64,000 nt of DNA from Pseudomonadota bacterium (GTDB lineage: Bacteria > Pseudomonadota > Alphaproteobacteria > RF32 > CAG-239), in assembly GCA_018362935.1 (NCBI GenBank), contig JAHALQ010000005.1, positions 62,490-126,489 of the forward strand, read 5' to 3'. Positions within the stretch are counted from its first letter, which is position 1, and the number at the start of each line of letters is the position of its first letter. Positions 3,343-23,574 of this stretch are shown here, one piece after another. The position numbers and the translations under genes are program-made. The notes beneath the pieces are model-generated. The model saw nothing but the letters and a program-made list of their open reading frames with translations, made no database searches and was not told the DNA's origin.

Positions 3343-3371
3343 TTATTTCAAACTCTTCAGTATCTATATCA

Positions 3372-3641: not shown

Positions 3642-3658
3642 CTCTCAAAAGTCCTTTT

Positions 3659-4834
3659 CTATATGTATTTGACACTAATTTCTTTCAGGTATTTGTCCTG
3701 CAAAATCCTGAATATCTTTTTCACAATATTGCGTCGGATTTCAAGCTCCATCGGCAAATTGGGATCCTGGTGGGCGATGTTGATTTTGGTACCGACCACA
3801 AAATCAATCTTGTCGCTGTCCAACAGCAGTTTGGCCAGCCGGGTCGCCCCGTTGTTTTTATCGGCATCAATGCCTTCTTTTAGCATACGGTACACATCAG
3901 TCAAGGTTAAAATTCCTTCCGTGACCAAATCAATGCCTTCCATTGTTGAACACATCGGGATTTTTTCGTCAAAAGACGTCTTGTCAATCTCGCATTTCAG
4001 ACAAAGTTCACGCTCGATAATATTGGCCGTTGTGCCGCCGCAGATTGCCGTCTTGCCGTCATAAGCAGAAACCAATTCGGCAAATTCGGCGTCGCGTTTT
4101 TCGTCAAACGGAGGGCCGGTCAAAACCAGCAGCTTGCGCGGCTTACGGAAATACAGCACGGTGCAGCTGATATCGTCGCCGGCTTTCTTGTCAACTTCTT
4201 TGCTTAAGGCTTCCTGCACAATCGCATGCGCCAAATCGCTGGCAGAAATTGTCGGGTTCCTGCGGATTTTCTCCAGCACGAAGTCCAGACAACCCTGCCG
4301 CTGCCAGCCCAGCGGATAAAGCCGGTTGCCCAGCCCGGCCTGCGTCACCCCGTCCGACATCAGAATAATCCGGTCTTCTTCCTGATTCGTCAGCTGCGAT
4401 ATATTAATTGTCCGGTCTTTCCACTTTTCGGAATATATCTCGCGGTAACGTACATTGACGGCCTTGTCGTCGCGGATAAACATAAAAGGCGGGTTGTCCA
4501 TCTCGAATATGCGCGTTTTGCCGTCGAGCTGTGTATCCACAACCGAAAAAGTCGCATAGCTGATTTTACGAATCTGACAGACCGGCAGCGCGTCCATCAT
4601 AACTTCCGACGAATGCATCAGTTCCATATTGCTTTCGACAAACTTCATTGCCATCCGCGTTGTCATCGATGACAGGATATTGGCTTTGACGCCGCTGCCC
4701 AGCCCATCGGACAGTATGGAAATAATCCGGCGCTCTTCGGGGATCTTTTTGGAATACACCGTGTCGCCGAAACAATCTTCGCCGTGTTTCTGCTGCTGCG
4801 CCGAACCGATTTCGATAAATAAAGAGTCGCTCAT
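3659..4834 (-). CDS. PP2C-family (SpoIIE/RsbU-like) serine phosphatase with a ~175-aa C-terminal domain of unknown function
   Basis: N-terminal PP2C motifs (GEDCFGD ... ILMSDGV ... GDDISCTVLYF); the C-terminal part (CGGTTANIIERELCLKCE...MCSTMEGIDLV) matches no domain I recognise; 3 nt downstream of hydS. Confidence 0.7.
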   Translation of the reverse strand: MSDSLFIEIGSAQQQKHGEDCFGDTVYSKKIPEERRIISILSDGLGSGVKANILSSMTTRMAMKFVESNMELMHSSEVMMDALPVCQIRKISYATFSVVDTQLDGKTRIFEMDNPPFMFIRDDKAVNVRYREIYSEKWKDRTINISQLTNQEEDRIILMSDGVTQAGLGNRLYPLGWQRQGCLDFVLEKIRRNPTISASDLAHAIVQEALSKEVDKKAGDDISCTVLYFRKPRKLLVLTGPPFDEKRDAEFAELVSAYDGKTAICGGTTANIIERELCLKCEIDKTSFDEKIPMCSTMEGIDLVTEGILTLTDVYRMLKEGIDADKNNGATRLAKLLLDSDKIDFVVGTKINIAHQDPNLPMELEIRRNIVKKIFRILQDKYLKEISVKYI

Positions 4835-4837
4835 CGG

Positions 4838-6619
4838 CTAAAACTTCCTCTCGGTCGAATTGGTACGGATTTTAACCCCCTCGTTCTCGCGATCGTTCAC
4901 GGCATAGTCTTTGGCGATAGAACGCAAAAGCACTTCCGTTTCAGCCATGTGCTCGCCCAGAGTGCATGCAATCTGCTGAACAGTCGCCAGATTCTTATGG
5001 ATAACTTCCTTTGCCCTTTCGGCAATCTGCTCTTTGTGCATCTCGGCGTTGGTCACATCTTCGATAATGCCGCCGACGCTTTGTTTCTTATCGATATTAA
5101 AGACCACCACGTCAAACATCTTGTCTTCGTGGCGGACATGCTCTTTGTGAATATCCTGTTCCAAATCCAGCGACGCCGTAAACAGATTGGTAAAGCTGAC
5201 AAAATCGCGCAGATTGGCACCGTACAGATTGTTGTAGTCATAAATTTCGGCATGTTCTTCCTCGTTCCAGAACGTATCGCGGAACTGGTCGTTGTATTCC
5301 ATGATATTGAGCTTGGCATCGGCAATTACAATCGGCGACGGAATGCAGCGGATAAGCGCGTTGGCTTTGCGCTGCGCCTGATGTTTCATGTGCGAAACGC
5401 ACATTTCGGGCTCGGCCTTTCCTTCCAGCAACGCGCAGGCAAAATTGCGGCAGGTGTTATAACCGCAGCCGCCGCAGTTCAACTCGTCCTCAATGCTGTA
5501 TTTGCCGATTCTCGTCAGTACTTTGCGAATGTCGCTTTCCTCAAATTTGCGGTCCAAGCCGTTAATATCCTGCGACTTATAACTTTCGGCTATATTGTAC
5601 TGCGGTTTGCGTGAAGCGGCTTCGTCAAACGACGCGTTTTTGAGGATTTCCATTCTCTTTTGCAGGCCGGAAGCCTTGTTGCTGGTACAGGGGCCGGACA
5701 CGCAGCCGCCGTAACAGGCCAGGCATTCCAGAAAAGTCGGCCGGTTCAGGTTGTCGATGTCAATATGCGTCAGCTCGTCCTGCAAACTGTATATGCCGGT
5801 AATCTGCGCCATATAAACGTCTTTTGACAGATTATGCGGTTTGATGGTTTCAATCATACCGCCCTCAATCGGATAAGCGCTGCCTTCTTTAGCATTATCC
5901 AGGGCAAAAACGTCAAAGACGCCGGGCACCAATTCTTCCGGATTAATGTTTTCATCTTTCAGCCACTGGCGCAAATCCTCAAAACTCAGAGCCAAAGACA
6001 ACAGCTCCGGATGCCTGTCGGCTTCAAACTTTTTGGCAATGCACGGGCCGATAAAAACGGTTTCAACATTCTGTCCGAACTTTTCTTTAAGCATCCGGCA
6101 GTGAGCCAGCAGCGGCGAAGCCACCTGCGCCAGATACGGCGTCAGTTCCGGCAGATATTTCTCAACATATTCAACCACCGCCGGGCAGGCTGTGGAAATC
6201 ATCAGCCGGTTTTCGTTTCTGGCAACGGCATCTTTGAGCTGGCGGACGGTTTCGGCAGTCACTTCCTGCGCGCCGAGCGCCGTTTCGCTCACGCCTTTAA
6301 TCCCCAGCCGGCGTATTGCCGCTACAATCTGCTCCTTGGTATATTCGGGAAATTCCGTCACCCATGACGGCGCCAGCGACACATAAATCTCGCGATTGGA
6401 AGAAACCAGATATTTGGCGCGCGCCAAATCATTGCGCGGCTGCTTGGCGCTGGCCGGGCAGACTTCGTAGCAAATGCCGCAGGCGATGCACAGCTCCGGC
6501 ACAATCATCGCCGAATTGTCCTCAATCTTAATTGCCTTGACCGGGCAGCGGCGGACGCATTTATAGCAGTCCTGGCAATCGTTCTTAACGGTATGCAGCG
6601 GGAAGTCGCGATTAGACAT
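4838..6619 (-). CDS. hydS: putative sensory [FeFe] hydrogenase HydS (H-cluster domain + Cx2Cx4Cx16C + PAS)
   Basis: N-terminal 2x4Fe-4S motif (CYKCVRRCP, CIACGICYEVCP); L1 ISTACPAVV with Ala in place of the proton-relay Cys; L2 GPCIAKKFE; L3 ECLACYGGCVSGPC; then CGGCGYNTC-x16-C and a PAS-like domain; start overlaps the upstream ferredoxin stop (TAATG). Confidence 0.85.
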   Translation of the reverse strand: MSNRDFPLHTVKNDCQDCYKCVRRCPVKAIKIEDNSAMIVPELCIACGICYEVCPASAKQPRNDLARAKYLVSSNREIYVSLAPSWVTEFPEYTKEQIVAAIRRLGIKGVSETALGAQEVTAETVRQLKDAVARNENRLMISTACPAVVEYVEKYLPELTPYLAQVASPLLAHCRMLKEKFGQNVETVFIGPCIAKKFEADRHPELLSLALSFEDLRQWLKDENINPEELVPGVFDVFALDNAKEGSAYPIEGGMIETIKPHNLSKDVYMAQITGIYSLQDELTHIDIDNLNRPTFLECLACYGGCVSGPCTSNKASGLQKRMEILKNASFDEAASRKPQYNIAESYKSQDINGLDRKFEESDIRKVLTRIGKYSIEDELNCGGCGYNTCRNFACALLEGKAEPEMCVSHMKHQAQRKANALIRCIPSPIVIADAKLNIMEYNDQFRDTFWNEEEHAEIYDYNNLYGANLRDFVSFTNLFTASLDLEQDIHKEHVRHEDKMFDVVVFNIDKKQSVGGIIEDVTNAEMHKEQIAERAKEVIHKNLATVQQIACTLGEHMAETEVLLRSIAKDYAVNDRENEGVKIRTNSTERKF

Positions 6620-6888
6620 TACTTATCTCCGGAGTTCGAATTTTGGTTATTCTGATAGTGTTTTTCCAAAATATCGTACAGCATGCCGCTTTCGATATTA
6701 TTATACTCCACGCCGTCAATCGTAATATTCGGCCCTTTGGAGCATTGGTCACAGCAGCGCAGCCCGGTCAGTTCGACCTCGGCTGACAGGTTATGGCTTT
6801 CAAGAAAATTTTGGATTACCTGAAGATTTTTCGAATTTCCGCGTGCAAAACAGGAACTGCCCATACAAACTTTGATTGTCGAAGCCAT
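6619..6888 (-). CDS. thioredoxin-like [2Fe-2S] ferredoxin
   Basis: C-x4-C (CMGSSC) and CC-x2-C (CCDQC); start set at MASTIKV because GGAGG lies 6 nt upstream, and the track ORF start at 6912 falls inside the RBS; 89 aa, same length as the paralog at 3372-3641. Confidence 0.65.
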   Translation of the reverse strand: MASTIKVCMGSSCFARGNSKNLQVIQNFLESHNLSAEVELTGLRCCDQCSKGPNITIDGVEYNNIESGMLYDILEKHYQNNQNSNSGDK

Positions 6889-6920
6889 TTTTTCCTCCGG
6901 CTGATAAAACACTTGTAAAA

Positions 6921-6949
6921 ATTATATAATTAAGCTCCTCAAAACGCAA
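6921..6949 (-). promoter_or_regulatory. sigma70-like promoter for the hyd operon (TTGCGT-17-TATAAT on the minus strand)
   Basis: Reverse complement of 6921-6949 reads TTGCGT tttgaggagcttaatta TATAAT, about 30 nt upstream of the RBS and start at 6888. Confidence 0.35.
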
Positions 6950-7001
6950 CAGAAATAGTTAACGTCCGAAACATATTTTTACTTAGGAAAACATTGGTAA
7001 T

Positions 7002-7034
7002 TTGCTTGATATAAGCATAAAGCAAGATTATGAT
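7002..7034 (+). promoter_or_regulatory. candidate promoter (TTGATA-17-TATGAT) for the first GGDEF-EAL gene, overlapping inverted repeat TTGCTT-N12-AAGCAA
   Basis: -35 at 7006-7011, -10 at 7029-7034; inverted-repeat arms at 7002-7007 and 7020-7025, a possible operator in the divergent intergenic region. Confidence 0.3.
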
Positions 7035-7066
7035 AAAAAGCAAAATGTCAATCGCTGAGAAACAAA

Positions 7067-8347
7067 ATGGCACAAGCAAACAGATTTGTAGCTGAAAAAA
7101 ATTTACTGGACACGTTGGATCGCATTGCCCGCAATCAGGCGGCATATTCGGTTTTGTATGTCAGTTTGTCCAAACTCAAGCCCAAAAACCGCCATCCCGC
7201 CTTTATCAAAATCATTGCCAAACTGTTTGATGATCTGGTCGGTGCCGCCGAAGGTTCAATGTTTATCCTCAACAACGGCGATTTTGCCATTCTCGGCAAA
7301 AACATTACTGCTGAAATTGTCGCCGATGCGGTCGACAAACTGCGCAAAGGCCTTGCGTCAGACCCGATTTTGTTCAACAGCAACATCTCAGAATTTGCGC
7401 ACCTGTATAACTTTCCCGAAGATTTCTCAACTTTGTACGAGTATATCAGACTGCAGATTGACAATGCCAGGCAGCCCGATTTTTCAAACCTTAAATATCC
7501 TGTCGAAGCTTCGCAGATGGACGGCGTGCTGGCGCACCTGGACGCCATTAACGTTGCCGAAATCATCAAGCATCAGAGCGTCATCCGCGTTGAAAAAGCC
7601 AATCAGTTCAAAGTACTGTTTCAGGAATTCTTTGTCGCTGTCAAAGACCTTAGCACCCTGTATGACAAAAACATCGACCTGACCGCCAACAAATGGCTTT
7701 TTCTTTATCTGACGCAGGCGCTTGATAAAAAAACAATTGCTTCGTTTCAGGCTGCCGAAATAAAAAACTGGCCGGCGTGCATAAGCCTTAACCTCCATTT
7801 ATCATCCGTATTCACGACCGAATTCGACAATCTGGCCGGCAGCCTTTTCGCCCCGCAGCAGCAGATTATTGCCGAAGTCCAGATGATGGACGTATTCAAC
7901 CGGCTCGAAAGTTACTTTGAAGCCAGAGAAAAACTGCATGCGCAGGGAAACCGGATTCTTATAGACGGGCTGATTCCCGAAACTTTATCCCTGATAGACA
8001 TAAACCGCCTGCAGCCTGACTTGATTAAACTGTTCTGGAATCCGATGATGGAATATGACACGAACAATCAGGAGCTGCGTGACATCATCAGCCAATTCGG
8101 CAGCGATCGGATTATTCTGGCCAAATGCACCGACGACAAAGCGCTGCGCTGGGGAATTTCATACGGTATTCGCGCTTTTCAGGGGCCGTATGCCGATAAT
8201 CTGGAAACTGCCGTTATCCGCTCGCAATGCCCGGCCGCAGCCGCATGCACAGCGGCTGACTGCCTCAGGCGCCGCCGCCTGATTACCGGCGCCGCGCGCA
8301 GCCAGTGCAAACATATCGAACACCTGGAAAAACTGCTGGGACAATAA
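7067..8347 (+). CDS. degenerate GGDEF-EAL protein (both domains apparently catalytically inactive)
   Basis: N-terminal GGDEF-like fold with GGDEF replaced by NNGDF and the DxDxFK region by SLSKLK; C-terminal EAL-like fold with DDFGTG replaced by IDGLIP, KLFW in place of KID, AKCTDD in place of AEGVE, and a FQGPY tail. Confidence 0.55.
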   Translation: MAQANRFVAEKNLLDTLDRIARNQAAYSVLYVSLSKLKPKNRHPAFIKIIAKLFDDLVGAAEGSMFILNNGDFAILGKNITAEIVADAVDKLRKGLASDPILFNSNISEFAHLYNFPEDFSTLYEYIRLQIDNARQPDFSNLKYPVEASQMDGVLAHLDAINVAEIIKHQSVIRVEKANQFKVLFQEFFVAVKDLSTLYDKNIDLTANKWLFLYLTQALDKKTIASFQAAEIKNWPACISLNLHLSSVFTTEFDNLAGSLFAPQQQIIAEVQMMDVFNRLESYFEAREKLHAQGNRILIDGLIPETLSLIDINRLQPDLIKLFWNPMMEYDTNNQELRDIISQFGSDRIILAKCTDDKALRWGISYGIRAFQGPYADNLETAVIRSQCPAAAACTAADCLRRRRLITGAARSQCKHIEHLEKLLGQ

Positions 8348-8348
8348 C

Positions 8349-9608
8349 ATGGAAGCCAAAACCGAAACCCGCACAATCCGAACCGATATAGCCGTCGCCG
8401 AATATCTGCGCAAGCTCGACGCGGCGGTCGGCGAATATGACGCGATTTATATCAACGTTTCCAAACTTGAAAGCAAAAACATCCGCGATTCCCACCGGCA
8501 GGAACTGGCCGACACTTTTGCAGCTTTCGTATCCAAAGCGATGGCGCGTTATTTTTGGTTCGCCAATGAAGACGTCATCGTCATTTACAACCGCCGCATC
8601 AAAGACGAAATTTTATCTTGCCTGGTCAAAATCCGTTTTATGTTTCACGACGACGAACTGCTCAAAAATTCCGACAATCTGGAAGCAATCGGCTTTGTCA
8701 AATTTTATAACATGGCCGATGACAAAAGAGAATTTTACCATCTTGTCAGCAAATTGAGCCACCAGCAAAACCCGGTCAAACTGCAGACAAAGAAGACCAA
8801 TCCCTTTGTTGTCAACACAATAGCTTCCTCTGCGCCCGCCAAACAGAAAAAACCGCTCACGCCGGACATTTTGGCGCGCGTTCAAAAAATACTGTCCGTC
8901 GCAGATTTTTCCAGCTTTATCCGCCGTCAGGCAATCTGCGCGGTCATCGGAAAATCGGCGCCGCTGCGTGTCTTTGAAGAAGTTTATGTGTCGATTCCAG
9001 ATTTGCGCGAAATGCTGCTTCCCGACATTGACCTGGTCGCCAATCCGTGGCTGTTTTTGTCGCTGAGCGAAACGCTGGACAAACGCGTTCTGGAAACGAT
9101 CGGACGCCATGACGACGGCTCGTTGATTGGAAATTTCAGCGTCAACATCAACGTATCGACGATTTTGTCAGATGAATTTCTGGCTTTCGACGAAAGTATC
9201 AGCGCTTCAATGCGCCCGAGCATCATTCTGGAGCTTCAGCTCGTAGATATTTTCAGCGACATCAAATCTTTTGTTCTGGCCAAAACTTTTGCCCAGGCGC
9301 GCGGATACAAAATCTGCATAGACGGCATCTCGGTTGACAAACTTAAATATCTTAATCGCGCCAATCTCAATTGCGATTTGATGAAGATTATCTGGCACCC
9401 GAGCTTTATGGACGTGATAAACGAAGACAAACATTTTATGGACTATGTTAACAAGGCAGAACGCGCCAAAATGATTCTCTGCCGGATTGACGACCCCTCC
9501 GCAATTGAAGTCGGCAACTCTCTGGGCATTAATCTTTATCAGGGTCGATATGTGCAAAGGCTCTTAAATGCCGTTGCGCCCAAAGTTCCTTTTACGCTTC
9601 GCAAGTAA
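8349..9608 (+). CDS. degenerate GGDEF-EAL protein, tandem paralog of 7067-8347
   Basis: Same architecture and colinear motifs (ANPWLFLSLSETLDK; ICIDGISVDKLKYLNR...KIIW; ILCRIDDPSAIEVGNSLGINLYQGRY); start lies 1 nt after the upstream stop. Confidence 0.55.
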   Translation: MEAKTETRTIRTDIAVAEYLRKLDAAVGEYDAIYINVSKLESKNIRDSHRQELADTFAAFVSKAMARYFWFANEDVIVIYNRRIKDEILSCLVKIRFMFHDDELLKNSDNLEAIGFVKFYNMADDKREFYHLVSKLSHQQNPVKLQTKKTNPFVVNTIASSAPAKQKKPLTPDILARVQKILSVADFSSFIRRQAICAVIGKSAPLRVFEEVYVSIPDLREMLLPDIDLVANPWLFLSLSETLDKRVLETIGRHDDGSLIGNFSVNINVSTILSDEFLAFDESISASMRPSIILELQLVDIFSDIKSFVLAKTFAQARGYKICIDGISVDKLKYLNRANLNCDLMKIIWHPSFMDVINEDKHFMDYVNKAERAKMILCRIDDPSAIEVGNSLGINLYQGRYVQRLLNAVAPKVPFTLRK

Positions 9609-9644
9609 ATCCCCTCTGCAAGCCCGTATTTTGTGCAATAAACA

Positions 9645-9673
9645 AAAGCTCCCGCCTGAACGGGAGCTTTCTT
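9645..9673. terminator. bidirectional intrinsic terminator
   Basis: AAAGCTCCCG-cctgaa-CGGGAGCTTT hairpin followed by CTT, between convergent genes. Confidence 0.45.
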
Positions 9674-9684
9674 AAGAATTACGG

Positions 9685-9867
9685 TTAATTTGCCTGCAGG
9701 CTTCTGCGTAACATTTCATCTTTTTTACGGAGCTTTTCTTTCTTGAGCTGCTCAATTCTAATCATATTTTTCCAGATGTGGCTTTCTTCCTCTCTGAGAG
9801 CGGCCTCAAGCTGCGCATGCTGGACTTTCAAACTTTCGATGGTAGCCTCAACTTCCGTATACACCAT
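9685..9867 (-). CDS. DUF465 (YdcH-like) coiled-coil protein
   Basis: 60 aa with a ...LKKEKLRKKDEMLRR motif typical of DUF465; AAGGAGA RBS. Confidence 0.55.
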   Translation of the reverse strand: MVYTEVEATIESLKVQHAQLEAALREEESHIWKNMIRIEQLKKEKLRKKDEMLRRSLQAN

Positions 9868-9954
9868 AATATATCTCCTTTTAAAAGGTGATTTATGCTA
9901 TATATTATAATCATACTTTTAATAAATTGCCACAAAAAAATACAGGAGTAACAA

Positions 9955-10344
9955 ATGTTTGATTTGGAATGGTATCAAAGCCTCGGCAAACCTGCCCTGA
10001 CTCCGCCGCCGGAAGCGTTTCAGACCGTATGGCCGGTGCTCTATATTCTGATGGCCGTATCTTTTTATTTTTATCTGAAACAAACGCCCAAAATACAACG
10101 GCCGCTTGGCATCATCTTTTTCTGCCTGCAATTATTCCTGAATTTTCTGTGGAGTCCCGTCTTTTTCGGCATGCAGCGCATTGGCAGCGCACTGTTGGTT
10201 TTATCGCTGCTGATTGTGACCGTCGCCTGTACGGTCTGGATATTCAACAAAACATCACGCCTTGCCGCCGGGCTGCTGTTACCGTATTTTGTCTGGATTC
10301 TTTTTGCCTGGTATCTCAATTTTGAAATCTGGCGGCTAAATTAA
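9955..10344 (+). CDS. tspO: TspO/MBR family tryptophan-rich sensory protein, N-terminally short
   Basis: WYxxLxKPxxxPP, W-rich transmembrane segments, C-terminal LNFEIWRLN; only 129 aa, a TAA 2 codons upstream rules out an extension, so TM1 is absent. Confidence 0.6.
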   Translation: MFDLEWYQSLGKPALTPPPEAFQTVWPVLYILMAVSFYFYLKQTPKIQRPLGIIFFCLQLFLNFLWSPVFFGMQRIGSALLVLSLLIVTVACTVWIFNKTSRLAAGLLLPYFVWILFAWYLNFEIWRLN

Positions 10345-10462
10345 AACCATAAAACAAAAAGCCGGATGGCGTGTGTATACAAAGTGTTTTGCAAGGCAAG
10401 AAAAATTTTAGCGTACAATAAAGACCGCGCAAAATTGCTCTGAATGAGCCGTTACACGCATT

Positions 10463-11602
10463 TTAATCTTTGCCGATATTAATATTACGGTTAATATTGA
10501 CGGAAAGGATAATGCCGAAAGCCGCCATAACCGAAAGGATAACAGTGCCGCCGTAGGATATTAACGGCAGGGGAACGCCGACAACCGGAATCAGGCCGAG
10601 CACCATCGCCATATTAATCATGACATAAAGAAAAAAGTTTGTCGCCAGGCCGACCGCCGCAAGTTTGCCGAAATAGCTGGTCGTACGCAAAGCGAAAGCA
10701 TAGCTGTAAGCCAGAATCAAAATATTGACAAGAACCACAAAAATAGCGCCAATCATGCCGAACTCTTCCGAAAGCATCGTAAAAATAAAATCGGTGTGCT
10801 TTTCCGGCAGAAAGTTAAGGTGGCTCTGCGTCCCCTTCAAAAAGCCTTTGCCGAATACGCCGCCCGACCCCAATGCGATTTTAGACTGGATAATGTGATA
10901 ACCGGCACCGAGCGGATCGCGCTCCGGATCCAAAAATGTCAGCACGCGGTTCTGCTGATAATCATGCAGCAGATTCCACGCAATCGGCAGAGAGATTATT
11001 CCGCCGAGCAAAACAATTCCGAATTTCCACAATTGCACGCCGACGGCAAAAAACATGGCGCCCGCCGTAAAGACCAGCATTAAGGCCGTTCCCAAATCCG
11101 GCTGTGTCATAACCAGCAGCGACGGAACCAATACCATCAGCAGCGGCACCATAATTCCGCGCATGGTTTCGATATTTTGCAGCGACGTGCCGTGGAAATA
11201 GCGCGCCAAAGCCAGAACCAAAGCAATTTTCATTAATTCCGACGGCTGCAGCTTTATAAAACCGAGGTTAATCCAGCGCTGCGCGCCCATACCGACATGG
11301 CCGCCGACTTCAACAATAATTAAAAGCAGCAATACCCCGAAATAAAAGACATAAGCATAACGCATAAAATACTTAACATCGACCAAGGCCAGCGTAATCA
11401 TGACAACCAGCCCGATGCCGAAACGCAGCAGCTGATTCAATGCCCAGGGATGCCAGCTGCCGTTCGCCGCCGAATACAGCATAGTTACGCCGACTGCGGC
11501 CAAAATAAAGATAAACATGATATAGGCAAAACTTAAACTCTGAATTTTTTCTTTCAGGGTCAAAGACTGGCTTTTAAAACTTGTTTCATAAAATTTATAC
11601 AT
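10463..11602 (-). CDS. mrdB: peptidoglycan glycosyltransferase RodA (SEDS family)
   Basis: FtsW/RodA/SpoVE family multi-pass membrane protein directly downstream of mrdA. Confidence 0.9.
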   Translation of the reverse strand: MYKFYETSFKSQSLTLKEKIQSLSFAYIMFIFILAAVGVTMLYSAANGSWHPWALNQLLRFGIGLVVMITLALVDVKYFMRYAYVFYFGVLLLLIIVEVGGHVGMGAQRWINLGFIKLQPSELMKIALVLALARYFHGTSLQNIETMRGIMVPLLMVLVPSLLVMTQPDLGTALMLVFTAGAMFFAVGVQLWKFGIVLLGGIISLPIAWNLLHDYQQNRVLTFLDPERDPLGAGYHIIQSKIALGSGGVFGKGFLKGTQSHLNFLPEKHTDFIFTMLSEEFGMIGAIFVVLVNILILAYSYAFALRTTSYFGKLAAVGLATNFFLYVMINMAMVLGLIPVVGVPLPLISYGGTVILSVMAAFGIILSVNINRNINIGKD

Positions 11603-11605
11603 TTG

Positions 11606-13341
11606 TTATTCCACCGGTTTTGGGCTGGCATCAAGCTTGAGAGCTTCCAGCAATAACTTTCCGCCGATCGGCGCCGCCACAGCCGAACCGCTGCGCCCGT
11701 GCTCGACCAGAACCGCAACGGCATAGCGCGGATTATTATGCGGCGCATATCCGACAAACAAAGCATGGTTGCGATATTTCCACGGCAGATCCTCCTGCCG
11801 GATAATTCCGGTCTGGCGCTCTTTCATGCTGATGCGCCGAACCTGGGTCGTTCCGGTCTTGCCCGCCATTTTAAGGCCGTTAAAATCAAATCTCGACCCC
11901 AGAGCCGTTCCGCCCGGAATATTAACCACGTCAAACATGCCCTGCTTGACAAGGGAAATATTGCCCGAACTGATATTCATCTTCTCAAGTTTAGACTTTT
12001 CGCTGACTTTGCTGAACGTCGGAACCACCGCATAGCCGCCGTTGGCAATTCGCGCCGTCATCGTTGCCAATTGTATCGGCGTCGTCAGTATATACCCCTG
12101 CCCGATGCCGGAAATCAAAGATTCGCCGAGTTGCCACGGTTCCCCGAAACGGCGGCGTTTCCAATCCGTATCGGGAATCAAGCCTTCTTTTTCATTTTCC
12201 AGACCGACGTTGATTTTCTGCCCGAGACCAAAACGCCGCGCCATCTCGGCAATTTTGTTGATTCCCACTTTCTGCGCCGTTTCATAAAAGAAAATATCGC
12301 ATGAATGTTGCAAAGCCTGAACAACGTCCAGATAACCATGCCCTTCTTTTTTCCAGCAGTGAAAAGCATGATCGCCCAAAAACATTTTTCCCGCGCAAAA
12401 AGAACGCGTCTGCGGCGTAATCGCTCCGCTTTCCAACGCGGCCAAAGCCACGACCATTTTGAATGTCGAACCCGGCGAATACTGCCCGGCGAGCACTTTG
12501 TTCATCATCGGCTTATGCTCGTTTTGATTAAGTTCTGCCCACTCTTTGGCACTGACACCCTGCGTAATCATATTGGGGTCATAAGCCGGCGTCGACGCAA
12601 ACACCAATATCTCGCCGCTGTATATGTCAACCATGACCGCGGCGCCGGTTTCTTCGCCAAACAGCTCATAGGCTTTGCTTTGCAGGCGCGCATCAATGCT
12701 CAGTTCTATCTTTTCGCCCGGCACGCCGTCAACCCGTTCTATTTCTTTCATAACGCGGCCGAAAGCATTAACTTCAAGCTTGAGGTTGCCGCCTTTGCCG
12801 CGCAGCTTCTTTTCATAGAGCTTTTCAATGCCGGCCTTGCCGATTTTGAATCCGGGAACTTCCAGCAGCGGATCGTCCTTGACCTTGACATCCTGCTCCG
12901 ACACCGAAGAAACATAGCCGATGACATGCGCCATTTTTTCACCGTAAGGATAATACCTTGTCAATCCTTCATCGATGATAATCCCCGGCAAATCCGGCGC
13001 ATTAAGCTGAATTTGCGCGACTTCGTCCCAATTCAGATTGTCTTTGATTTTTATCGGAACAAAGCTCCGATTCTTTTTCAAATCTTTTTTTATTTTTTCC
13101 TCTTCGGCTTCCGACAAGGGCATAATCCGCTTAAAGGCATCCAGCGTTTCCTGCACGTTGGTCGTCTGTTCGGCCACAATCATTGCTTGGAAATTCTGAC
13201 GGTTGGTTGCCAGCATCTCGCCGTATATACCTGCAGATAATATAAGCGGGCAATAATGATAATCAGCAGCACAATCTGCCCCGCCGCCAACACCAGCGAC
13301 CGACCGATCAGAACTTTTCCCTTATCATTATCCCGGTTCAT
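11606..13341 (-). CDS. mrdA: penicillin-binding protein 2 (MrdA) with an apparent 1-nt frameshift after the N-terminal membrane anchor
   Basis: Transpeptidase motifs (STFK, SxN, KTGT) lie in the frame of the track ORF 11606-13216; the anchor (MNRDNDKGKVLIGRSLVLAAGQIVLLIIIIARLYYLQVYT, ATG at 13341 overlapping the mreD stop) is in the +1 frame and stops after ..WQPTVRISKQ; the junction is around 13219-13228. Confidence 0.8.
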
Positions 13342-13859
13342 TATTCTTCATCCTGTATCAGCGTATTTTGCACAAAAGCCAGCAGCAGTGAAACCAGCGG
13401 ATAGCAAAATACAGTTATCAGATAGCTGAAAAACAGCACGCCGAGCGGCAAAAAGCGGCTGTAATAAACCGACACCACCAACCAGCGCAGCAAAATCGTT
13501 CCCAAAGACAGGGCGACAAAGCCGTACCACAAAACCACGAAAGGTTTTGCCGTCAGAAATTTTGACGCGGCATTGGTCAGAACATACAAAACCAGCATGG
13601 CAAAAATACTTGAACCCATCGGCGCGGCGCTGATAACATCATCAACCAGCCCCAGGCAGCAAATAGACCATAAATTAAACAAATCCGGACGGTGCACCAG
13701 CCAAAAATAGCCGCAAATCAATCCGATAGCCGGATGAATGGTGTTAAGAAACAAAAAATTCAGCGGCAGATAAGACAGCAAAACCAGAAAAACCGAAGAC
13801 AACAGCGGCAGCAAACGCTGAAACAGGGAATTGATGTTTTCATCCAAATCATCACTCAT
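13341..13859 (-). CDS. mreD: rod shape-determining protein MreD
   Basis: Small polytopic membrane protein in the mreBCD-mrdAB cluster; overlaps mreC by 8 nt. Confidence 0.8.
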   Translation of the reverse strand: MSDDLDENINSLFQRLLPLLSSVFLVLLSYLPLNFLFLNTIHPAIGLICGYFWLVHRPDLFNLWSICCLGLVDDVISAAPMGSSIFAMLVLYVLTNAASKFLTAKPFVVLWYGFVALSLGTILLRWLVVSVYYSRFLPLGVLFFSYLITVFCYPLVSLLLAFVQNTLIQDEE

Positions 13860-14730
13860 CGGTATCCCCGTTTTTAAGATTCAGCTGGCTGTCCCTGAGC
13901 AGCCCCTCAAGACCGTAATTGATTAGCTTGATGTACTCAAGCTGCTCCAGCGAGCTGAACGGTTTAACCGCAATTTCGTTTTTTCCGGCGCTGACAACTT
14001 TGCCGATGGGCAGCCCGGCCGGAAAAACGCCGGCCACGCCTGAAGTCACAATCCGGTCGCCGATATTAATCCCGGCATCCAGCGGCGTAAAAATCAGTTT
14101 TGGCAGCGACGTATTGTCGCCCGACAAAATTCCGCGTACCCGCGAACTTTCGACAATTACCGGAATTTTTGAGTTGATATCGGTTATCAGCAAAATCCGC
14201 GCATAGCTGTCGCCGGCGCGGTCAACCCGGCCGACTACCCCTTTGTCCGACATCGCCACTTGTCCCTTGCGCGCTCCTGCATCCCCGACATAGGCAATCA
14301 TCGAATGCGAAAAAGCGTCGCCTTCTTCGGCAATGACGCGGGCGGTAATAAAATCAGATTTCGGCGGCGTCACATAATTGAGCAAATCGGTCAACAGCCG
14401 GTTTTCGATTTCCAGAGATTTAAACTTGTCATACAAAAGGTTGAGTTTGCGGTTTTCTTCTTTCAGGCGTTGGTTGTCGGCATGAATTTCCTTCAAATCG
14501 CTGAAATAATCATAAGCATGTGCAATCAGCTTCGCCGGGATAACCAGCACGTCTATCACGGGGGAAACAACATCCGTCGCCACGTTGGAAGTTTTTTCTA
14601 TCAGCACGGTATCGGTTTTGTTCACCAACATCAAAGCAAACGCAGTCAAAAACAAAATTACCAGCGCAAATTTCTTGGCCAGTAATCTAATGTGGCTTAA
14701 ATGTAAAAATAAACTTCTGCGCCGTTTCAT
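13852..14730 (-). CDS. mreC: rod shape-determining protein MreC
   Basis: N-terminal transmembrane helix, coiled coil and beta domains; position between mreB and mreD. Confidence 0.85.
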   Translation of the reverse strand: MKRRRSLFLHLSHIRLLAKKFALVILFLTAFALMLVNKTDTVLIEKTSNVATDVVSPVIDVLVIPAKLIAHAYDYFSDLKEIHADNQRLKEENRKLNLLYDKFKSLEIENRLLTDLLNYVTPPKSDFITARVIAEEGDAFSHSMIAYVGDAGARKGQVAMSDKGVVGRVDRAGDSYARILLITDINSKIPVIVESSRVRGILSGDNTSLPKLIFTPLDAGINIGDRIVTSGVAGVFPAGLPIGKVVSAGKNEIAVKPFSSLEQLEYIKLINYGLEGLLRDSQLNLKNGDTDE

Positions 14731-14781
14731 AAATCAAAAACTTTCGTGATAATTCACTCCAAGAAGTTTGGCCGGCGTGTG

Positions 14782-14851
14782 TAAATAATAAGAATTAAGG
14801 GCGGCAACACCGGAGTTTACAAAGACGTAAATGAGGATGTTGCCGACCCGC
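14782..14851 (-). terminator. complex palindromic intrinsic terminator, member 3 of a three-copy family (downstream of mreB)
   Basis: GGGCGGCAACAccggag[TTTAC..GTAAA]tgaggaTGTTGCCGaCCCG; on the minus strand it is followed by TTAATTCTTATTATTTA; homologous to 22681-22747 and 44333-44402 with compensatory stem changes. Confidence 0.5.
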
Positions 14852-14889
14852 AAATTCTGTATTAGTTACCAGCCGGACAAGCTTCTCGA

Positions 14890-15945
<1,056 letters not shown>

Positions 15946-16021
15946 TTAAATAAATTGTTGTTGCTTAATTTTTATAACGATATTCCGTTCTGTGCAAGCG
16001 CTATTTGTTTTTTTAACAAAT

Positions 16022-16056
16022 AAATAAGGGGGCAAAAGCCCCCTTTTATATTTTTC
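16022..16056 (-). terminator. intrinsic terminator (GGGGGC-aaaa-GCCCCC)
   Basis: Perfect 6-bp GC stem flanked by A/T tracts on both sides; lies downstream of the GNAT gene. Confidence 0.45.
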
Positions 16057-16067
16057 CCGGCCGGCCG

Positions 16068-16913
16068 TCAGCGGCGCGCGCCGGTTTGGTATGAGCGCAG
16101 CATAAAAGCAGGACTGATTTGCGGACCTTTCTGCTCAATATTGTCTTGTTTCCAGCGTTTTATCCAGGTTCCCATCCGGCCTTTGTTTTCAATCCAGTTG
16201 CCGTAACCGCGGTGGCTGCCGTGAAATCCCTTGGCCAAATCGTTTTTGTCATTGGTATTAATGGCGCCGGTACACAGGGCATACTGGTTTTCCACGCCGA
16301 AATTCTGCACGTAATAACCGTCCAGAGCCTCCGCAAAAAGTTTGCCCAGACCTTTGCCCTGTAACGCTGCCGAAACGGCAATCGTATCGTTGTAAATCAG
16401 TTTGTCCTTAATCGGAATACCCTCTTCCTGCATTTCCCGGGCTTCCCGCGAACCGGCTTCAATCAGCTGAAAAGTGGCAAAACCAACCGGCTTGTTGGTG
16501 GCAATTTCTTCCAAAACAAAAATATCGCTTTTTTGAGCATAGGCTTCATAAGATTGGGGCGTTCCGTCAAAATAAATCGGAAAGTTGTTTTCATATCGGC
16601 CGTATTTGTTATACACCGACATAAACTCGGCCGGATCAAAATCCTGCTCGAAAAAAAGGTTGTCGGCAGCAGGCTTGCCCGAAACCGGGGCTGTATGCTC
16701 CTTGTCATAAATACCGCGGGGCGTAAAAGCGCTGCTCTTGACAATGCGGTAGCCTTTAGCCGCCAGCAGTTCCAAAGATTTATCCACTCCCTCGAAACCC
16801 TGAGCGGCAAGAACTTCTTTGCGCTCCGGCAGCATGACGCCGTCCCAGTACGGCAGTTCCCGCTCTGCGTCGATCCCGTAGCGGGCTTCCATTTTGTCTT
16901 TCCAGTTTGCCAT
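16068..16913 (-). CDS. GNAT-family N-acetyltransferase domain protein with an N-terminal extension of unknown function
   Basis: Acetyl-CoA-binding motif IAVSAALQGKGLGKLFAE; start moved to MANWKD because GGAGG lies 6 nt upstream. Confidence 0.55.
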   Translation of the reverse strand: MANWKDKMEARYGIDAERELPYWDGVMLPERKEVLAAQGFEGVDKSLELLAAKGYRIVKSSAFTPRGIYDKEHTAPVSGKPAADNLFFEQDFDPAEFMSVYNKYGRYENNFPIYFDGTPQSYEAYAQKSDIFVLEEIATNKPVGFATFQLIEAGSREAREMQEEGIPIKDKLIYNDTIAVSAALQGKGLGKLFAEALDGYYVQNFGVENQYALCTGAINTNDKNDLAKGFHGSHRGYGNWIENKGRMGTWIKRWKQDNIEQKGPQISPAFMLRSYQTGARR

Positions 16914-16975
16914 TTCAGCCTCCATGTAAAATTATAGAAGCTAATTTACACCTTATTCAATTTTTTGTCAATATT

Positions 16976-17881
16976 TTAGAAAAAACATTTATCCAGGGTT
17001 ATTTCGGCAGACAGTTTGTTGCGAAACCACGTGCGCTGGCGTTTGGCATATTGGCGGGTATGCAGTTTCGCCAAATCAACGGCTTCTGCCAAAGTCAGTT
17101 GCCCTGACAGATACGCCGCCAGTTCCGGCACGCCGAGCATCTTCATTGCCGGCAGATTTTTGTCCAAATTAAGCGACAGCAAATAACGGACTTCATCCAA
17201 GGCGCCGGCTTTCATCATCAAATCAAAACGGCGGTAGCAGCGTTCGTCAAGCTCTTTGGTATCGGGTATGATTTTAATGACATAAAAATCTGCTTCGGAA
17301 AGTTTTTGAAGCATCGGCTTTTGATACCAATCGGCAATGGAAATTCCGGTTTGCAAAAAAATTTCATATGCGCGGCGAACACGCGTCGTGTCATTAGGAT
17401 TAAGCTTTGCCGCTCCGGCAGGATCATCCTTTTGCAGCAAGCCGAAAAGCCCCTCCTGCCCCAGTTCCGCCGCCAGCCGACGAACCTGCTCGCGGATTTC
17501 CGGCTTTGGTTCGGGTATCGGCGTCGTGCCGTTGACCAGATTATCAATATACATTCCGGTTCCGCCGACAACAACCGGCAAATTGCCGCGGTTCCAGACG
17601 TCGCGGACAGCCGCAACGGCGCGCGCCAGCCAGTCAACCACCGTTCCGTTGACGGAAGGATGGTAAATTTCATAAAGATGATGTGGAATTTCGGCGCGCT
17701 CGGCAGCCGAAGGCACGGCAGAAAGCACCGGTGTTCCCTGATAAACCTGCATTGAATCAGCGTTGATAATTTCGCCGTTATACCGCCGCGCAATATCCAA
17801 AGACAGACCGGATTTACCCGATGCCGTCGGCCCGGCAATCACAATCACGGTATTAGGTTTGATATTGTCCAGTTCAAGCAT
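16976..17881 (-). CDS. miaA: tRNA dimethylallyltransferase MiaA
   Basis: P-loop GPTASGKS plus a DSMQVY motif. Confidence 0.9.
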   Translation of the reverse strand: MLELDNIKPNTVIVIAGPTASGKSGLSLDIARRYNGEIINADSMQVYQGTPVLSAVPSAAERAEIPHHLYEIYHPSVNGTVVDWLARAVAAVRDVWNRGNLPVVVGGTGMYIDNLVNGTTPIPEPKPEIREQVRRLAAELGQEGLFGLLQKDDPAGAAKLNPNDTTRVRRAYEIFLQTGISIADWYQKPMLQKLSEADFYVIKIIPDTKELDERCYRRFDLMMKAGALDEVRYLLSLNLDKNLPAMKMLGVPELAAYLSGQLTLAEAVDLAKLHTRQYAKRQRTWFRNKLSAEITLDKCFF

Positions 17882-17960
17882 CTGTTTTACTCATACTTTC
17901 CTTTGAAAGCTTGGATAGTGGAATTGATAGAGTGATTTCACCATTCCTCCTGCCCACAAA

Positions 17961-18878
17961 TTAAATCTTTCTGCAAGAGGCATTTTCAACAAGTTTCGCA
18001 CACAGCTCCTCATACGATATGCCGGCATACTTCGCCTGTTCGGGCACCAGCGAAAGCGCTGTCATTCCTGGATTGGTGTTGATTTCGAGAAGCACGACGC
18101 CGTCTTCGGGATTGTAGCGCAGATCAACGCGCGAAACTGTGTTGCAGCCAAGGCGCTGGTGCAGTTTCTCGGCATAGGCCTTGCAGATTTCCGAAACTTC
18201 ATAAGGAACTTCAGCCGGCAGAATATGCTGGGTAACGCCGTCGGTATACTTGGCTTTATAGTCGTAAAACTCGTCAGAAGCTTTAAGTTCGGTCACAACA
18301 TAGGCCTTGTCTTCCAGACACATCACGGTCAGTTCCTGCCCGGGAATATATTTTTCTACCAAAATTTCACGGTCAAGATCTTTGTATTTAACCTTGAGCA
18401 AATCTTCCTGGTTATTGACAATAAACACGCCGACGCTCGAACCGTCGCAAACCGGCTTGACCACAAACGGCATAGATATAACCGTTCCGTTTTCAAAGAA
18501 GTTGCGCGCTTTCATTTTCTGGCTCGGCGCCACGCGGATACCGCAGCTTTTGGCAACCATTTTGGTAATATACTTGTCCATGCCGATGGCCGAAGCTTTC
18601 AGCCCCGAATGCGTATAAGGTATTTGCATCAAATCGAGCATGCCCTGAATTTCGCCGTCTTCGCCCCAGTTGCCGTAAAGCCCGTTAAACACGACATCAG
18701 GCTTTTCTTTTTTAAGAACGTCAATCAGTTTCCACACATCGGTAAAATCATGCGCGACGACATGATAGCCTTTGGACTCCAAAGCGTTGCAGATATCCTG
18801 CCCCGAACTCAGGCTGACCTCTCTTTCGGCCGACAATCCTCCCATCAAAACCAAAACTTTTTTAGACATTTCAGACAT
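17961..18878 (-). CDS. ddl: D-alanine--D-alanine ligase
   Basis: ATP-grasp fold with the N-terminal VLMGGxSxERxVSL motif. Confidence 0.9.
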   Translation of the reverse strand: MSEMSKKVLVLMGGLSAEREVSLSSGQDICNALESKGYHVVAHDFTDVWKLIDVLKKEKPDVVFNGLYGNWGEDGEIQGMLDLMQIPYTHSGLKASAIGMDKYITKMVAKSCGIRVAPSQKMKARNFFENGTVISMPFVVKPVCDGSSVGVFIVNNQEDLLKVKYKDLDREILVEKYIPGQELTVMCLEDKAYVVTELKASDEFYDYKAKYTDGVTQHILPAEVPYEVSEICKAYAEKLHQRLGCNTVSRVDLRYNPEDGVVLLEINTNPGMTALSLVPEQAKYAGISYEELCAKLVENASCRKI

Positions 18879-18972
18879 TATTTTAATCCTTTAAATTATA
18901 AATTTTTATGCTATGGTATGCAAAATTGCCCATAGTATATGTCAAAAGTTTTAAAGAAAGAATAAAAAAATT

Positions 18973-19746
18973 ATGAAAAAAATCGGACTAATTCTGCTTG
19001 GCATGGCTTTGTTCAGCCGCAGCGCCGCCGCATTCAGCGTCATGCACGAATTTAATATCGGCATCGGCCCTTTCGATGCCAGCCGCACCCGCTTTTCCTA
19101 TACGCTGGAACCGGAATCTTTTGAAGTAAATTCGTCCGTTAAGACTTTCGGCGTTTTCGACACGCTTTACCCTTTCAAGGCTGATTATAAAACTGCCGGA
19201 AAAGTCAGCAAAAATAATCTGTTGCCGCTGAATTACCGCTACAAGTCGCAGACCCGTTTCAACAAGCGCAGCAAAGAACTGGTTTATGACGATGCCGGCA
19301 CGCTTTTATACCGCAAAAGCAGCAAAAACGGCCGCAGCAAAAAAGTCGGCATTGCAAACGACGACAAAAATAACGGAACAACCGACTTTCAGACCGTTTT
19401 TGCCAAACTTGCCCGGCAGTACCAAAAAGTCCGTTTTTGTGATTCCCGCATGCCGGTTTTTGACGGCAAACGCCGTTTTGACGTCATCTTCAAGGACGAA
19501 GGTACGGAAACCCTCCCGCAGTCGGAAAAATTTTCTTTCGGCGGCAAAGCAGCCAAATGCTCGATGTATATCGACAAACTCAAAAACGACGATGACGATA
19601 TGCTGATGCAGATAAGCGCCGAACGCCCGATTTATTTTTGGATTATGGAACGCGAAGGCAAACCGTTTATTGCCCGCATCCATATTGATGAAACCCCGCT
19701 CGGCGCGCTTGACGCCTACGCTGCCGATATTCAGATTAAGGATTAA
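18973..19746 (+). CDS. secreted hypothetical protein (DUF3108-like)
   Basis: Signal peptide (MKKIGLILLGMALFSRSAAA); beta-rich with no clear motif; family assignment is tentative. Confidence 0.4.
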   Translation: MKKIGLILLGMALFSRSAAAFSVMHEFNIGIGPFDASRTRFSYTLEPESFEVNSSVKTFGVFDTLYPFKADYKTAGKVSKNNLLPLNYRYKSQTRFNKRSKELVYDDAGTLLYRKSSKNGRSKKVGIANDDKNNGTTDFQTVFAKLARQYQKVRFCDSRMPVFDGKRRFDVIFKDEGTETLPQSEKFSFGGKAAKCSMYIDKLKNDDDDMLMQISAERPIYFWIMEREGKPFIARIHIDETPLGALDAYAADIQIKD

Positions 19747-19750
19747 TGCC

Positions 19751-21148
19751 ATGTTGGAAAAAGCCGAACTTCTGCTTCCGGCCGGCTCGCTGGTCAAACT
19801 CAAAACCGCCGTTCTATATGGCGCCGACGCCGTCTATGCCGGCACACCGGACATGTGCCTGCGCGCGCAAAGCAAATTCACCATGGAAGAGCTGCGCGAG
19901 GGTATTGAGTTTGCGCATCAAAACGGCAAAAAAATCTATCTGACGCTCAATCTGTTTATGCATAACCGCGACGTTGAAAAGCTGCCGACTTTTGTCGACA
20001 CGCTGCGCGAGCTCAAACCGGACGGCGTATTGATTGCCGATCCCGGCGTTTTCCAATATGTCCGCGAACATGCGCCGGAATTAAGCCTCTTTGTATCGAC
20101 GCAGGCCAACATCTGTTCTTATCAGGCCGTCAAATTTTGGCAGAATCAGGGCGCCAAACTCTGCGTCCTCGGCCGCGAAGTCAGCTTTGAAGAAATGAAG
20201 GAAATCCGCGACAAATGTCCCGACATTTTGCTTGAATGCTTTATGCACGGCGCCATGTGCATGTCTTATTCCGGCCGTTGTCTGATATCCAACTATCTGG
20301 CCGACCGCAGCGCCAATCAGGGCAAATGCGCGCATTGCTGCCGCTGGCATTACAAATTGCACTTGCGCCTTAAGGACGGCACGATTAAAGAACTGACAAT
20401 AGACGAACATAACAAAGATTCTTTTGAATTTCTGCTGGAAGAAGAATTCCGCCCCGGCGAATATTTTGAAGTTATGGAGGACGAACACGGCGGCTATATG
20501 CTCAATTCCAAAGACATGTGCATGATGCCGCGGCTGGACGATTTACTTTCAATCGGCATGGATTCTCTCAAAGTGGAAGGCCGCAACAAAACCGAATATT
20601 ACGCCGCCACTGTCGCCCGCGCCTATCGCCGGGCGATTGACGACTGGTATAAAGACCCGCAAAACTGGGATTATCGCAAATACATGGGCGAGCTGGAAAC
20701 GCTGCAAAACCGCGGCTACTGCCTTGGCTTTCATGACGGAAAACTGACCAACATCAGCCAGAATTATGAATACACGCGGACACTGGGCGACTGGCTGTTT
20801 GCCGGTTCAATCGTCGAATGGCAGGACGACGACGCCATTTTTGAAATTCGCAATTATATTAATGCGGAAGAAGAAATTGAATTTCTGATTCCCGGCACGC
20901 TTGAAGTCGTTAAACTGCGCCTGAATGAGTTTGAAGACGCCCTCAGCGGCGAAGTCACATCCAGAGTTTCGGCCGGTCAGGAAAAGAAAATCCGCATTCG
21001 CCCGCAACTGTGGAACCGTCCGTTTGCCGAAATCAAAAAGCTCTTGCCCCAATATACAATTGCTCGCAAGTTTGCGCCGCTGCAAGGCGATAATGCCGAA
21101 ATGCTCCGACACAAAAAAGACGAATATGAAGTTCTCCGCCGCAAATAA
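19751..21148 (+). CDS. U32-family peptidase (RlhA/TrhP-like RNA-hydroxylation-associated enzyme)
   Basis: Peptidase U32 signature region (ECFMHGAMCMSYSGRCLIS...CAHCCRWHY); start taken at the ATG at 19751 after the upstream stop. Confidence 0.8.
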   Translation: MLEKAELLLPAGSLVKLKTAVLYGADAVYAGTPDMCLRAQSKFTMEELREGIEFAHQNGKKIYLTLNLFMHNRDVEKLPTFVDTLRELKPDGVLIADPGVFQYVREHAPELSLFVSTQANICSYQAVKFWQNQGAKLCVLGREVSFEEMKEIRDKCPDILLECFMHGAMCMSYSGRCLISNYLADRSANQGKCAHCCRWHYKLHLRLKDGTIKELTIDEHNKDSFEFLLEEEFRPGEYFEVMEDEHGGYMLNSKDMCMMPRLDDLLSIGMDSLKVEGRNKTEYYAATVARAYRRAIDDWYKDPQNWDYRKYMGELETLQNRGYCLGFHDGKLTNISQNYEYTRTLGDWLFAGSIVEWQDDDAIFEIRNYINAEEEIEFLIPGTLEVVKLRLNEFEDALSGEVTSRVSAGQEKKIRIRPQLWNRPFAEIKKLLPQYTIARKFAPLQGDNAEMLRHKKDEYEVLRRK

Positions 21149-21151
21149 GCC

Positions 21152-21180
21152 AAAGGCCGGATTAATCTCCGGCCTTTTTC
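21152..21180. terminator. bidirectional intrinsic terminator (GGCCGGA-ttaatc-TCCGGCC + TTTTT)
   Basis: 7-bp GC stem with A tract before and T tract after; between convergent genes. Confidence 0.5.
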
Positions 21181-21656
21181 ATCAAATCAGAAACGTTTTC
21201 CTTGAGTTTTTCCAAACGGACAACCTCATGGAGCTGTCCTTCCTGCATATAGATTTTGGCAAGGCGGCTGCTGATTTTGATAATTTCTTCGCAGCGCTGG
21301 GTTATGCTGACAGGCGCATCGCCCCACATTTCCAGCATTTGTTCCCACACGCTGGCTTTTTGCCGGTTATCTCCGGCCAGATAAATTGCTTTTTGCCAAT
21401 ATTTCAATGCTTCCATCGGCTGATTTTTTTCTTTTAACGCCTTGGCGATATTATTATGAGCCCAATACAACAACACATTCCGCTTGATGTTGGGATTCCA
21501 GCGGCAGGACTTTGTATTGGCACAGAAATCGATTACTTTTGCATAAGCCTGTATGGTATTGTCAGGATCGGAAATCTGATTGGCGCGCTCATATGCCTGT
21601 TTATATGCCTGCACAATTGAGGTGGGCGGCGAATTAGTGCTGTACTCCGCCTGCAT
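21162..21656 (-). CDS. hypothetical TPR-like helical protein
   Basis: Helical repeats (AYAKVIDFC..., ALKYWQKAIYLAG); start uncertain, and the track ORF start overlaps the next gene. Confidence 0.4.
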   Translation of the reverse strand: MQAEYSTNSPPTSIVQAYKQAYERANQISDPDNTIQAYAKVIDFCANTKSCRWNPNIKRNVLLYWAHNNIAKALKEKNQPMEALKYWQKAIYLAGDNRQKASVWEQMLEMWGDAPVSITQRCEEIIKISSRLAKIYMQEGQLHEVVRLEKLKENVSDLMKKAGD

Positions 21657-21999: not shown

Positions 22000-22160
22000 T
22001 GATTTACTCCTTTGATTAAATGACCAATTTAAAGTATGCCGCTTTAGGGCAAAAACAATAGACCTTTGGAATAGAAGCCCAAACTGCTTGTCTCATGTGA
22101 TTAGTTATTCGTGATTCGTTATTGCTTGAATAATTAAATTTTCTCTTTTATACTTCTTTT

Positions 22161-22328: not shown

Positions 22329-22354
22329 AGCAAAAGAATTAAGGAGTTATCAAA

Positions 22355-23565: not shown

Positions 23566-23574
23566 ATCGTTCTC

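Follow-up and report, generated by a model that had tools for sequence, protein, structure and literature searches.

The Split PBP2 Gene (mrdA) of a Gut Alphaproteobacterial Contig Lacks 88 Nucleotides That Are Present in Same-Strain Assemblies

Introduction

The PBP2 gene mrdA is found in the window (the whole 64,000-nt stretch of DNA that was analysed) as two open reading frames instead of one, within an operon on the minus strand that is composed, in order, of mreB, mreC, mreD, mrdA and rodA. The question raised by this locus is what has separated the membrane anchor of the elongasome transpeptidase from its catalytic body, and whether the separation belongs to the organism or to the assembly. 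The split was attributed in a sequence-only reading to a frameshift of one nucleotide, for which a sequencing or assembly indel, a genuine pseudogenisation and expression from an internal methionine without the anchor were offered as origins. The locus was compared with contigs of the same strain, with orthologs from related genomes and with PBP2 proteins of known structure, and the coordinates of its parts are collected in Table 1.

Table 1. Parts of the mreB-mreC-mreD-mrdA-rodA operon, in window coordinates.
Feature	Position	Strand	Description
mreB	14890..15930	-	346 aa, intact
mreC	13852..14730	-	292 aa, PF04085, intact
mreD	13341..13859	-	172 aa, intact; length and position as in 6/6 reference loci
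mrdA 5' remnant	13180..13341	-	Cytoplasmic tail and transmembrane anchor in codons 1-39, identical to P0001; then 14 codons out of frame and a TGA
mrdA deletion junction	13224..13225	-	...GGTATAT / ACGGCGAG...; 88 nt absent relative to all comparison contigs
mrdA 3' part	11606..13224	-	Homologous to P0001 residues 70-607; rest of the pedestal and transpeptidase domain
rodA (SEDS glycosyltransferase)	10463..11602	-	379 aa, intact; DNA identical to L001, L003 and L005

Reading Frames of the Split Gene

The ATG of mrdA at 13341 overlaps the mreD stop codon (ATAATG) and opens a frame that encodes a PBP2 anchor, as had been proposed. This frame (13341..13180, minus strand) was found to contain 53 codons and a TGA stop, where 56 codons had been counted earlier. 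Its first 39 residues (MNRDNDKGKVLIGRSLVLAAGQIVLLIIIIARLYYLQVY) are a typical PBP2 cytoplasmic tail and anchor, with a maximum 19-aa Kyte-Doolittle window of 2.43 starting at residue 15, and the anchor part (...LLIIIIARLYYLQVY) is identical to that of the intact ortholog P0001. The frame is closed by the out-of-frame residues TARCWQPTVRISKQ (T, then 13 residues). The catalytic body lies in a different frame, in a 536-aa ORF (13216..11606, minus strand) that carries the PF03717 (PBP_dimer) and PF00905 (Transpeptidase) domains, and the separation of anchor and catalytic ORF into two frames was thus confirmed. The ATG at 13216, from which this longest ORF of the 3' part starts, corresponds to Met72 of the intact protein.

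The 536-aa ORF scored 631.4 bits on the TIGR03423 model (pbp2_mrdA), above the curated cut-off of 455 bits, and its active-site motifs were located at residues 250 (STFK), 305 (SCD) and 453 (KTGT). Two of the motifs reported earlier, STFK and KTGT, were recovered; the middle one is SxD (S-C-D) and not SxN. Judged by score, domains, motifs and operon context, mrdA is an ordinary PBP2 gene. Both profile matches begin well inside their models, at position 60 of TIGR03423 (positions 60–590) and at position 17 of PF03717 (positions 17–179, the first 16 being missing), which was the first sign that more than one base had been lost. As written, the gene lacks two features that define a functional PBP2: its anchor is not part of the catalytic chain, and its pedestal is incomplete.

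No hydrophobic N-terminus was found in the 536-aa ORF, the maximum 19-aa Kyte-Doolittle value over its first 100 residues being 0.44, and neither a transmembrane segment nor a signal peptide was detected in its product. A spaced Shine-Dalgarno sequence is lacking before the ATG at 13216; the upstream sequence ...GTATATACGGCGAG directly abuts the start codon, and so does the sole purine-rich stretch in the vicinity, GGCGAG. In class B PBPs, a transpeptidase domain located in the cytoplasm cannot reach its periplasmic substrate. As written, mrdA would be a null allele that yields an orphan 53-aa anchor peptide and an anchorless 536-aa fragment. No second PBP2-like gene able to compensate was found within the window.

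Extent of the Lesion

Six comparison contigs (L001–L006), originating from at least five different samples and all encoding P0001, were aligned with the window at the DNA level. The window was found to lack exactly 88 nt (CAGGCGGAC...GATCGCC) between positions 13225 and 13224, with identical flanks on both sides. The missing stretch corresponds to positions 10118–10205 of L001, and the gap measures 88 nt in 6/6 alignments. Outside the deletion, the mrdA of the window is identical to the gene for P0001. Since 88 equals 3 × 29 + 1, the loss shifts the frame: 29 codons have disappeared, and the His69 codon has lost its first base. The peptide lost with them comprises residues 40–69 of the 607-aa ortholog, QADKYKTLSDENRISTRLLVPPRGVIYDRH (30 residues); P0001 matches the anchor of the window through ...YLQVY and matches it again from GEMLATN, with these 30 residues in between. 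The apparent continuity 'YLQVYT-GEMLATN' of the earlier reading is a coincidence of deletion endpoints that fall near codon boundaries.

The earlier claim that one added nucleotide would give a continuous PBP2 did not hold. The protein 'repaired' in this manner has 578 aa and still lacks the 30 residues, whereas the orthologs have 607 aa. On TIGR03423 it matched positions 57–590 with 635.8 bits, and the intact P0001 matched positions 2–590 with 707.1 bits. The start of the model is still absent from the repaired protein, so a single added base does not restore PBP2. Taken together, the alignments indicate that the lesion is almost certainly an 88-nt deletion rather than an indel of one nucleotide. 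The refutation suggested before, reads with one extra base, is therefore aimed at the wrong target, the lesion being one of 88 nt.

Conservation of the Missing Segment

Comparison with orthologs, which had been recommended in the sequence-only reading, returned single-frame proteins of 607 aa. The proteins P0001–P0006 have 607 aa each, are 99–100% identical to the 536-aa ORF and all contain the missing peptide. All of the best 120 protein matches have lengths of 600–625 aa. The best species representative among 185,579 has a PBP2 with 91% aa identity, and all matches span residues 1–590 to 1–607. The closest deposited genomes are MAGs of uncultured Alphaproteobacteria that were recovered from the guts of humans and animals and are related to 'Proteobacteria bacterium CAG:495'.

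The lost segment, one of the most constrained stretches of the protein, is gap-free in all of the 80 species-level relatives that were compared (80/80; 67–91% aa identity). Thirteen of the 30 residues do not vary at all, among them D49-E-N-R52, P60, R62-G63 and D67-R68. The deleted peptide (...PPRGVIYDRH) carries the conserved N-terminal R-G-x-I-x-D-R box of PF03717, with R62, G63, D67 and R68 invariant in 81/81 sequences. Residues 40–69 align without gaps to residues 46–75 of E. coli PBP2 in the RodA-PBP2 complex 8tj3. This membrane-proximal stretch lies directly after the transmembrane helix. It is made up of the juxtamembrane linker together with the beginning of the pedestal (non-penicillin-binding) domain, and it contains the counterparts of Q51, T52 and L61 of E. 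coli. Substitutions of these three residues in E. coli PBP2 bypass MreC, MreD and RodZ and hyperactivate RodA, and the PBP2 pedestal is bound by MreC (PMC6207328). The strong constraint on the lost segment leads us to infer that its removal should inactivate PBP2 even if residues 40–69 were lost in frame.

The Deletion Junction

The junction is blunt, with 0 nt of microhomology. Neither direct repeats of at least 6 nt flanking the junction nor inverted repeats at it were found, and no hairpin that would bring the deletion ends together was predicted (DNA fold, z −0.39). The tetranucleotide GGCG is present at both ends with a spacing of 88 nt, but its register differs from that of the junction by 2 nt; slippage at GGCG would yield TATCAGGCG, and the sequence observed is TATACGGCG. 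A slippage deletion between short direct repeats was rejected on account of the 0 nt of homology at the endpoints. Microhomology is usual in slippage deletions, and homology-free junctions are less typical of spontaneous bacterial deletions. Searches for the deletion allele elsewhere gave negative results that count as weak evidence, since the record from which the window comes may itself be missing from the collections: the junction 38-mer and 22-mer were absent from JGI metagenome contigs, and the 536-, 525- and 53-aa products were absent, by exact look-up, from a public gene-position index.

Same-Strain Contigs and Other Differences

The window and the near-identical contigs, which derive from human-gut metagenome assemblies, were found to agree closely. 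Downstream of the junction, identity to the window was 100.000% for L001 and L003 (11,619 nt) and for L005 (7,671 nt). Likewise, L089, from the same run as L003, and L094 were 100.000% identical to the window over 11,021 and 7,249 nt, respectively. Upstream of the junction, two mismatches each were counted for L003 (over 6,266 nt) and L005 (over 1,954 nt), because the BLAST alignment overran the junction by 6 nt. Compared with L001 over 21.7 kb, the window differs only by the deletion and by a 14-nt cluster at 22713–22726. Base for base, the window is the same strain as the contigs with an intact mrdA.

Relative to the near-identical contigs, mrdA is the only gene of the window that is broken. 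The remaining indels (1–4 nt) are differences from more divergent strains, and what looks like an 8-nt indel comes from a scaffold gap (N10) of L087. An assembly-wide indel problem was rejected, no further gene-breaking indels having been found against the near-identical contigs. The check for decay in rodA, mreC and mreD that had been proposed, extended to mreB, revealed none, the DNA of all four genes being identical to L001. The gene order around mrdA, with mreBCD upstream and rodA immediately downstream, is identical in 6/6 reference loci. A decaying pseudogene in a degenerating pathway was discarded as an explanation, given these identical neighbours and the lack of further lesions in mrdA.

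The N10 of L087 (ZEEV15-1 scaffold_559, around position 5630) stands where the window has 2 nt at about 35105, and represents a scaffold join of the wrong length. The contig L088, from another assembly, ends exactly at this site. The corresponding window ORF (34944–35747, truA-like) is whole, and the N10 of L087 yields a truncated 105-aa pseudouridine-synthase call.

Intergenic Repeats and Neighbouring Genes

A dispersed palindromic intergenic repeat of approximately 95 nt is present in three copies in the window, at 14774–14879 (the mreB-mreC spacer), 22670–22775 and 44325–44437, and larger similar blocks lie at 22146–22782 and 43937–44437. The copy at 14.8 kb folds into one long hairpin (RNA MFE −40.1 kcal/mol, z −7.0), and the copies differ from one another by paired changes that preserve the stem. 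An Rfam scan of 9000–24000 gave no family at the gathering score. A REP/MITE-like element is one possible identity of the repeat; a terminator or a small RNA that the loci share is another.

The 14-nt cluster at 22713–22726 (L001 614–629) is the apex of the hairpin of this intergenic repeat. The apex of L001 at the 22.7-kb locus is the same as that of the 44.4-kb copy in the window (GTGTACTTTAGTGCGTACA), and the allele carried by the window at 22713–22726 is common to L087 and L088. The cluster is a natural two-allele polymorphism. The difference suggests gene conversion between repeat copies or cross-talk in the assembler. The end of the Logan contig L089 lies some 27 nt away from the cluster, as expected at a k-mer bubble.

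An 80-aa HTH (Xre-like) gene (22355–22597, plus strand) adjoins the repeat at 22.4 kb, and a diverged second copy of this region is located at about 44150–44400. In L090, a 76-aa HTH_31 gene was called in this second region, near 44.2 kb. Besides the hairpin, a small regulator gene thus seems to belong to the duplicated block.

The gene content of the window at 1606–8350 and 28384–31913 was read from matching contigs. It comprises two Fe-only hydrogenase-like genes, accompanied by 2Fe-2S thioredoxin-like partners, as well as a SpoIIE-type phosphatase. In addition, an orphan T4SS coupling-protein-like gene (785 aa, T4SS-DNA_transf) adjoins a pentapeptide-repeat protein.

Origin of the Deletion

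Since mrdA is intact in other public assemblies of the same strain, the deletion either arose in assembly or is a private mutation of very recent date. Two of the origins offered in the sequence-only reading, assembly error and genuine loss of function, thus stay live, and anchorless expression from the internal methionine found no support. Between them, the two surviving origins leave at most a slight chance for all others.

An artefact of assembly or consensus is the reading that is favoured, with a confidence slightly above even. The deletion would probably have been introduced during assembly, scaffolding or polishing and would not be a property of the organism; two contig ends may have been joined across an unassembled stretch. 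Several observations speak for an artefact. The identity of 100.000% to the contigs with the intact gene leaves no visible time for divergence, the blunt and homology-free junction is as expected from a mis-join of sequence ends, and the deletion is unique and would strike a core, strongly constrained gene in an otherwise untouched operon. It is also the sole gene-breaking difference in the window, neither its junction nor its truncated products were recovered from the public collections searched, and the 120 best protein matches are all of full length. Scaffold joins of the wrong length do, in addition, occur in sister assemblies, as in L087. Against it, the rest of the window is error-free in comparison with independent assemblies, which makes an isolated artefact odd. 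Moreover, de Bruijn-graph assemblers rarely make an 88-nt deletion in unique, repeat-free sequence without reads that span the junction.

A genuine and very recent loss-of-function deletion, by which the sampled population or its dominant clone would carry a null allele of mrdA, is a serious alternative, held at somewhat less than even confidence. The flawless remainder of the consensus implies that reads probably supported the junction, it is rare for short-read assemblers to create a deletion where the sequence is unique, and no repeat of k-mer size is present at the site to cause a collapse. A young event would also leave identical flanks and undecayed neighbours, as observed. However, the intact allele is the sole form in at least 10 contigs that carry P0001 and in 80/80 related genomes, and the deletion allele is recorded nowhere else in the collections searched. 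The junction lacks the microhomology that is usual for slippage deletions, and the remaining operon is fully maintained. Rod-shaped Proteobacteria either require PBP2 or retain it under strong selection, which counts further against a real deletion. In E. coli, mrdA mutants are conditionally viable, the cells rounding up and depending on other synthases.

If the deletion were real, the cells would be without the transpeptidase of the Rod system, and rounding together with a reliance on other synthases would be expected. It is rather unlikely that the deletion is both real and dominant in the host, in which case a human-gut alphaproteobacterium would be living in situ without the elongasome transpeptidase and with mreBCD and rodA intact. 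Such a clone might have been selected by a beta-lactam that targets PBP2 or be tolerated through slow growth, and would offer a natural in vivo example of the dispensability of PBP2. Even so, the interest of such a gut commensal without PBP2 would be modest, as it would have a single private allele in a well-understood gene and no new mechanism. The disruption of a gene by a short deletion, whether real or introduced by assembly, is of a familiar kind, and nothing suggests a new mechanism.

A functional arrangement, with expression from the internal methionine, with or without the anchor peptide, or with a ribosomal frameshift in the 13225–13180 overlap, was found to be very improbable. Both ORFs are open, and their frames overlap by 36 nt, so that a shift there would fuse them. 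Nevertheless, the 536-aa product has no export signal and would remain cytoplasmic, out of reach of its substrate, and its ATG lacks a spaced Shine-Dalgarno sequence. The product of the internal methionine has no anchor or signal (0.44 versus 2.43 for the anchor ORF in the hydropathy windows) and is missing the start of the pedestal, and could not be a periplasmic transpeptidase. No slippery site of the type X XXY YYZ was visible when the 13225–13180 overlap was read directly, and any fused product would be without the 30 near-invariant residues. A split or a frameshift is present in 0 orthologs, all of which are single-frame. Programmed ribosomal frameshifting or recoding was rejected on the basis of these single-frame orthologs and of the slippery heptamer not being seen in the overlap.

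The model of a single-nucleotide indel near 13219–13228, splitting an otherwise complete mrdA that one base would restore, has virtually no chance of being correct: one added base formally joins the frames, giving YLQVYTGEMLATN, but the alignment gap is 88 nt long, the 'repaired' product of 578 aa (orthologs, 607 aa) is without the TIGR03423 positions before 57 and the first 16 of PF03717, and the 30-residue segment is missing from no relative.

In annotation, mrdA should be labelled as disrupted by an 88-bp internal deletion and not as a fixable 1-nt frameshift. A check of the reads should come before any claim that this organism has lost the Rod system or has an altered cell shape.

Comparison with Known Systems

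The gene of the window resembles PBP2/MrdA, the class B transpeptidase of the elongasome (TIGR03423), in its operon, in its PBP_dimer and Transpeptidase domains and in the motifs STFK, SxD and KTGT. The middle motif of E. coli PBP2 is also SxD (S-A-D in the alignment), like the S-C-D of the window. The intact ortholog aligns end to end with the solved PBP2 structures 7kis (E 1e-133) and 8tj3 (E 2e-115). In contrast to PBP2/MrdA, the window gene is without the equivalent of E. coli residues 46–75, and its anchor and catalytic body are carried on different ORFs. A further point of comparison is the intact allele of the same lineage (P0001), in which the flanking DNA is identical and 88 additional nucleotides give one frame of 607 aa.

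The lesion also shares characteristics with errors of metagenome assembly and scaffolding, which likewise appear as a single, isolated and homology-free error of length in an otherwise perfect consensus. It differs from scaffolding errors such as the N10 of L087 in that no Ns are present at the mrdA junction. Finally, the deleted stretch covers the sites Q51, T52 and L61, at which the pedestal mutants of E. coli mrdA (pbpA) activate the Rod system. Those mutants are activating point substitutions, whereas the gene of the window has lost the entire segment and, with it, its reading frame, and a null allele would be expected.
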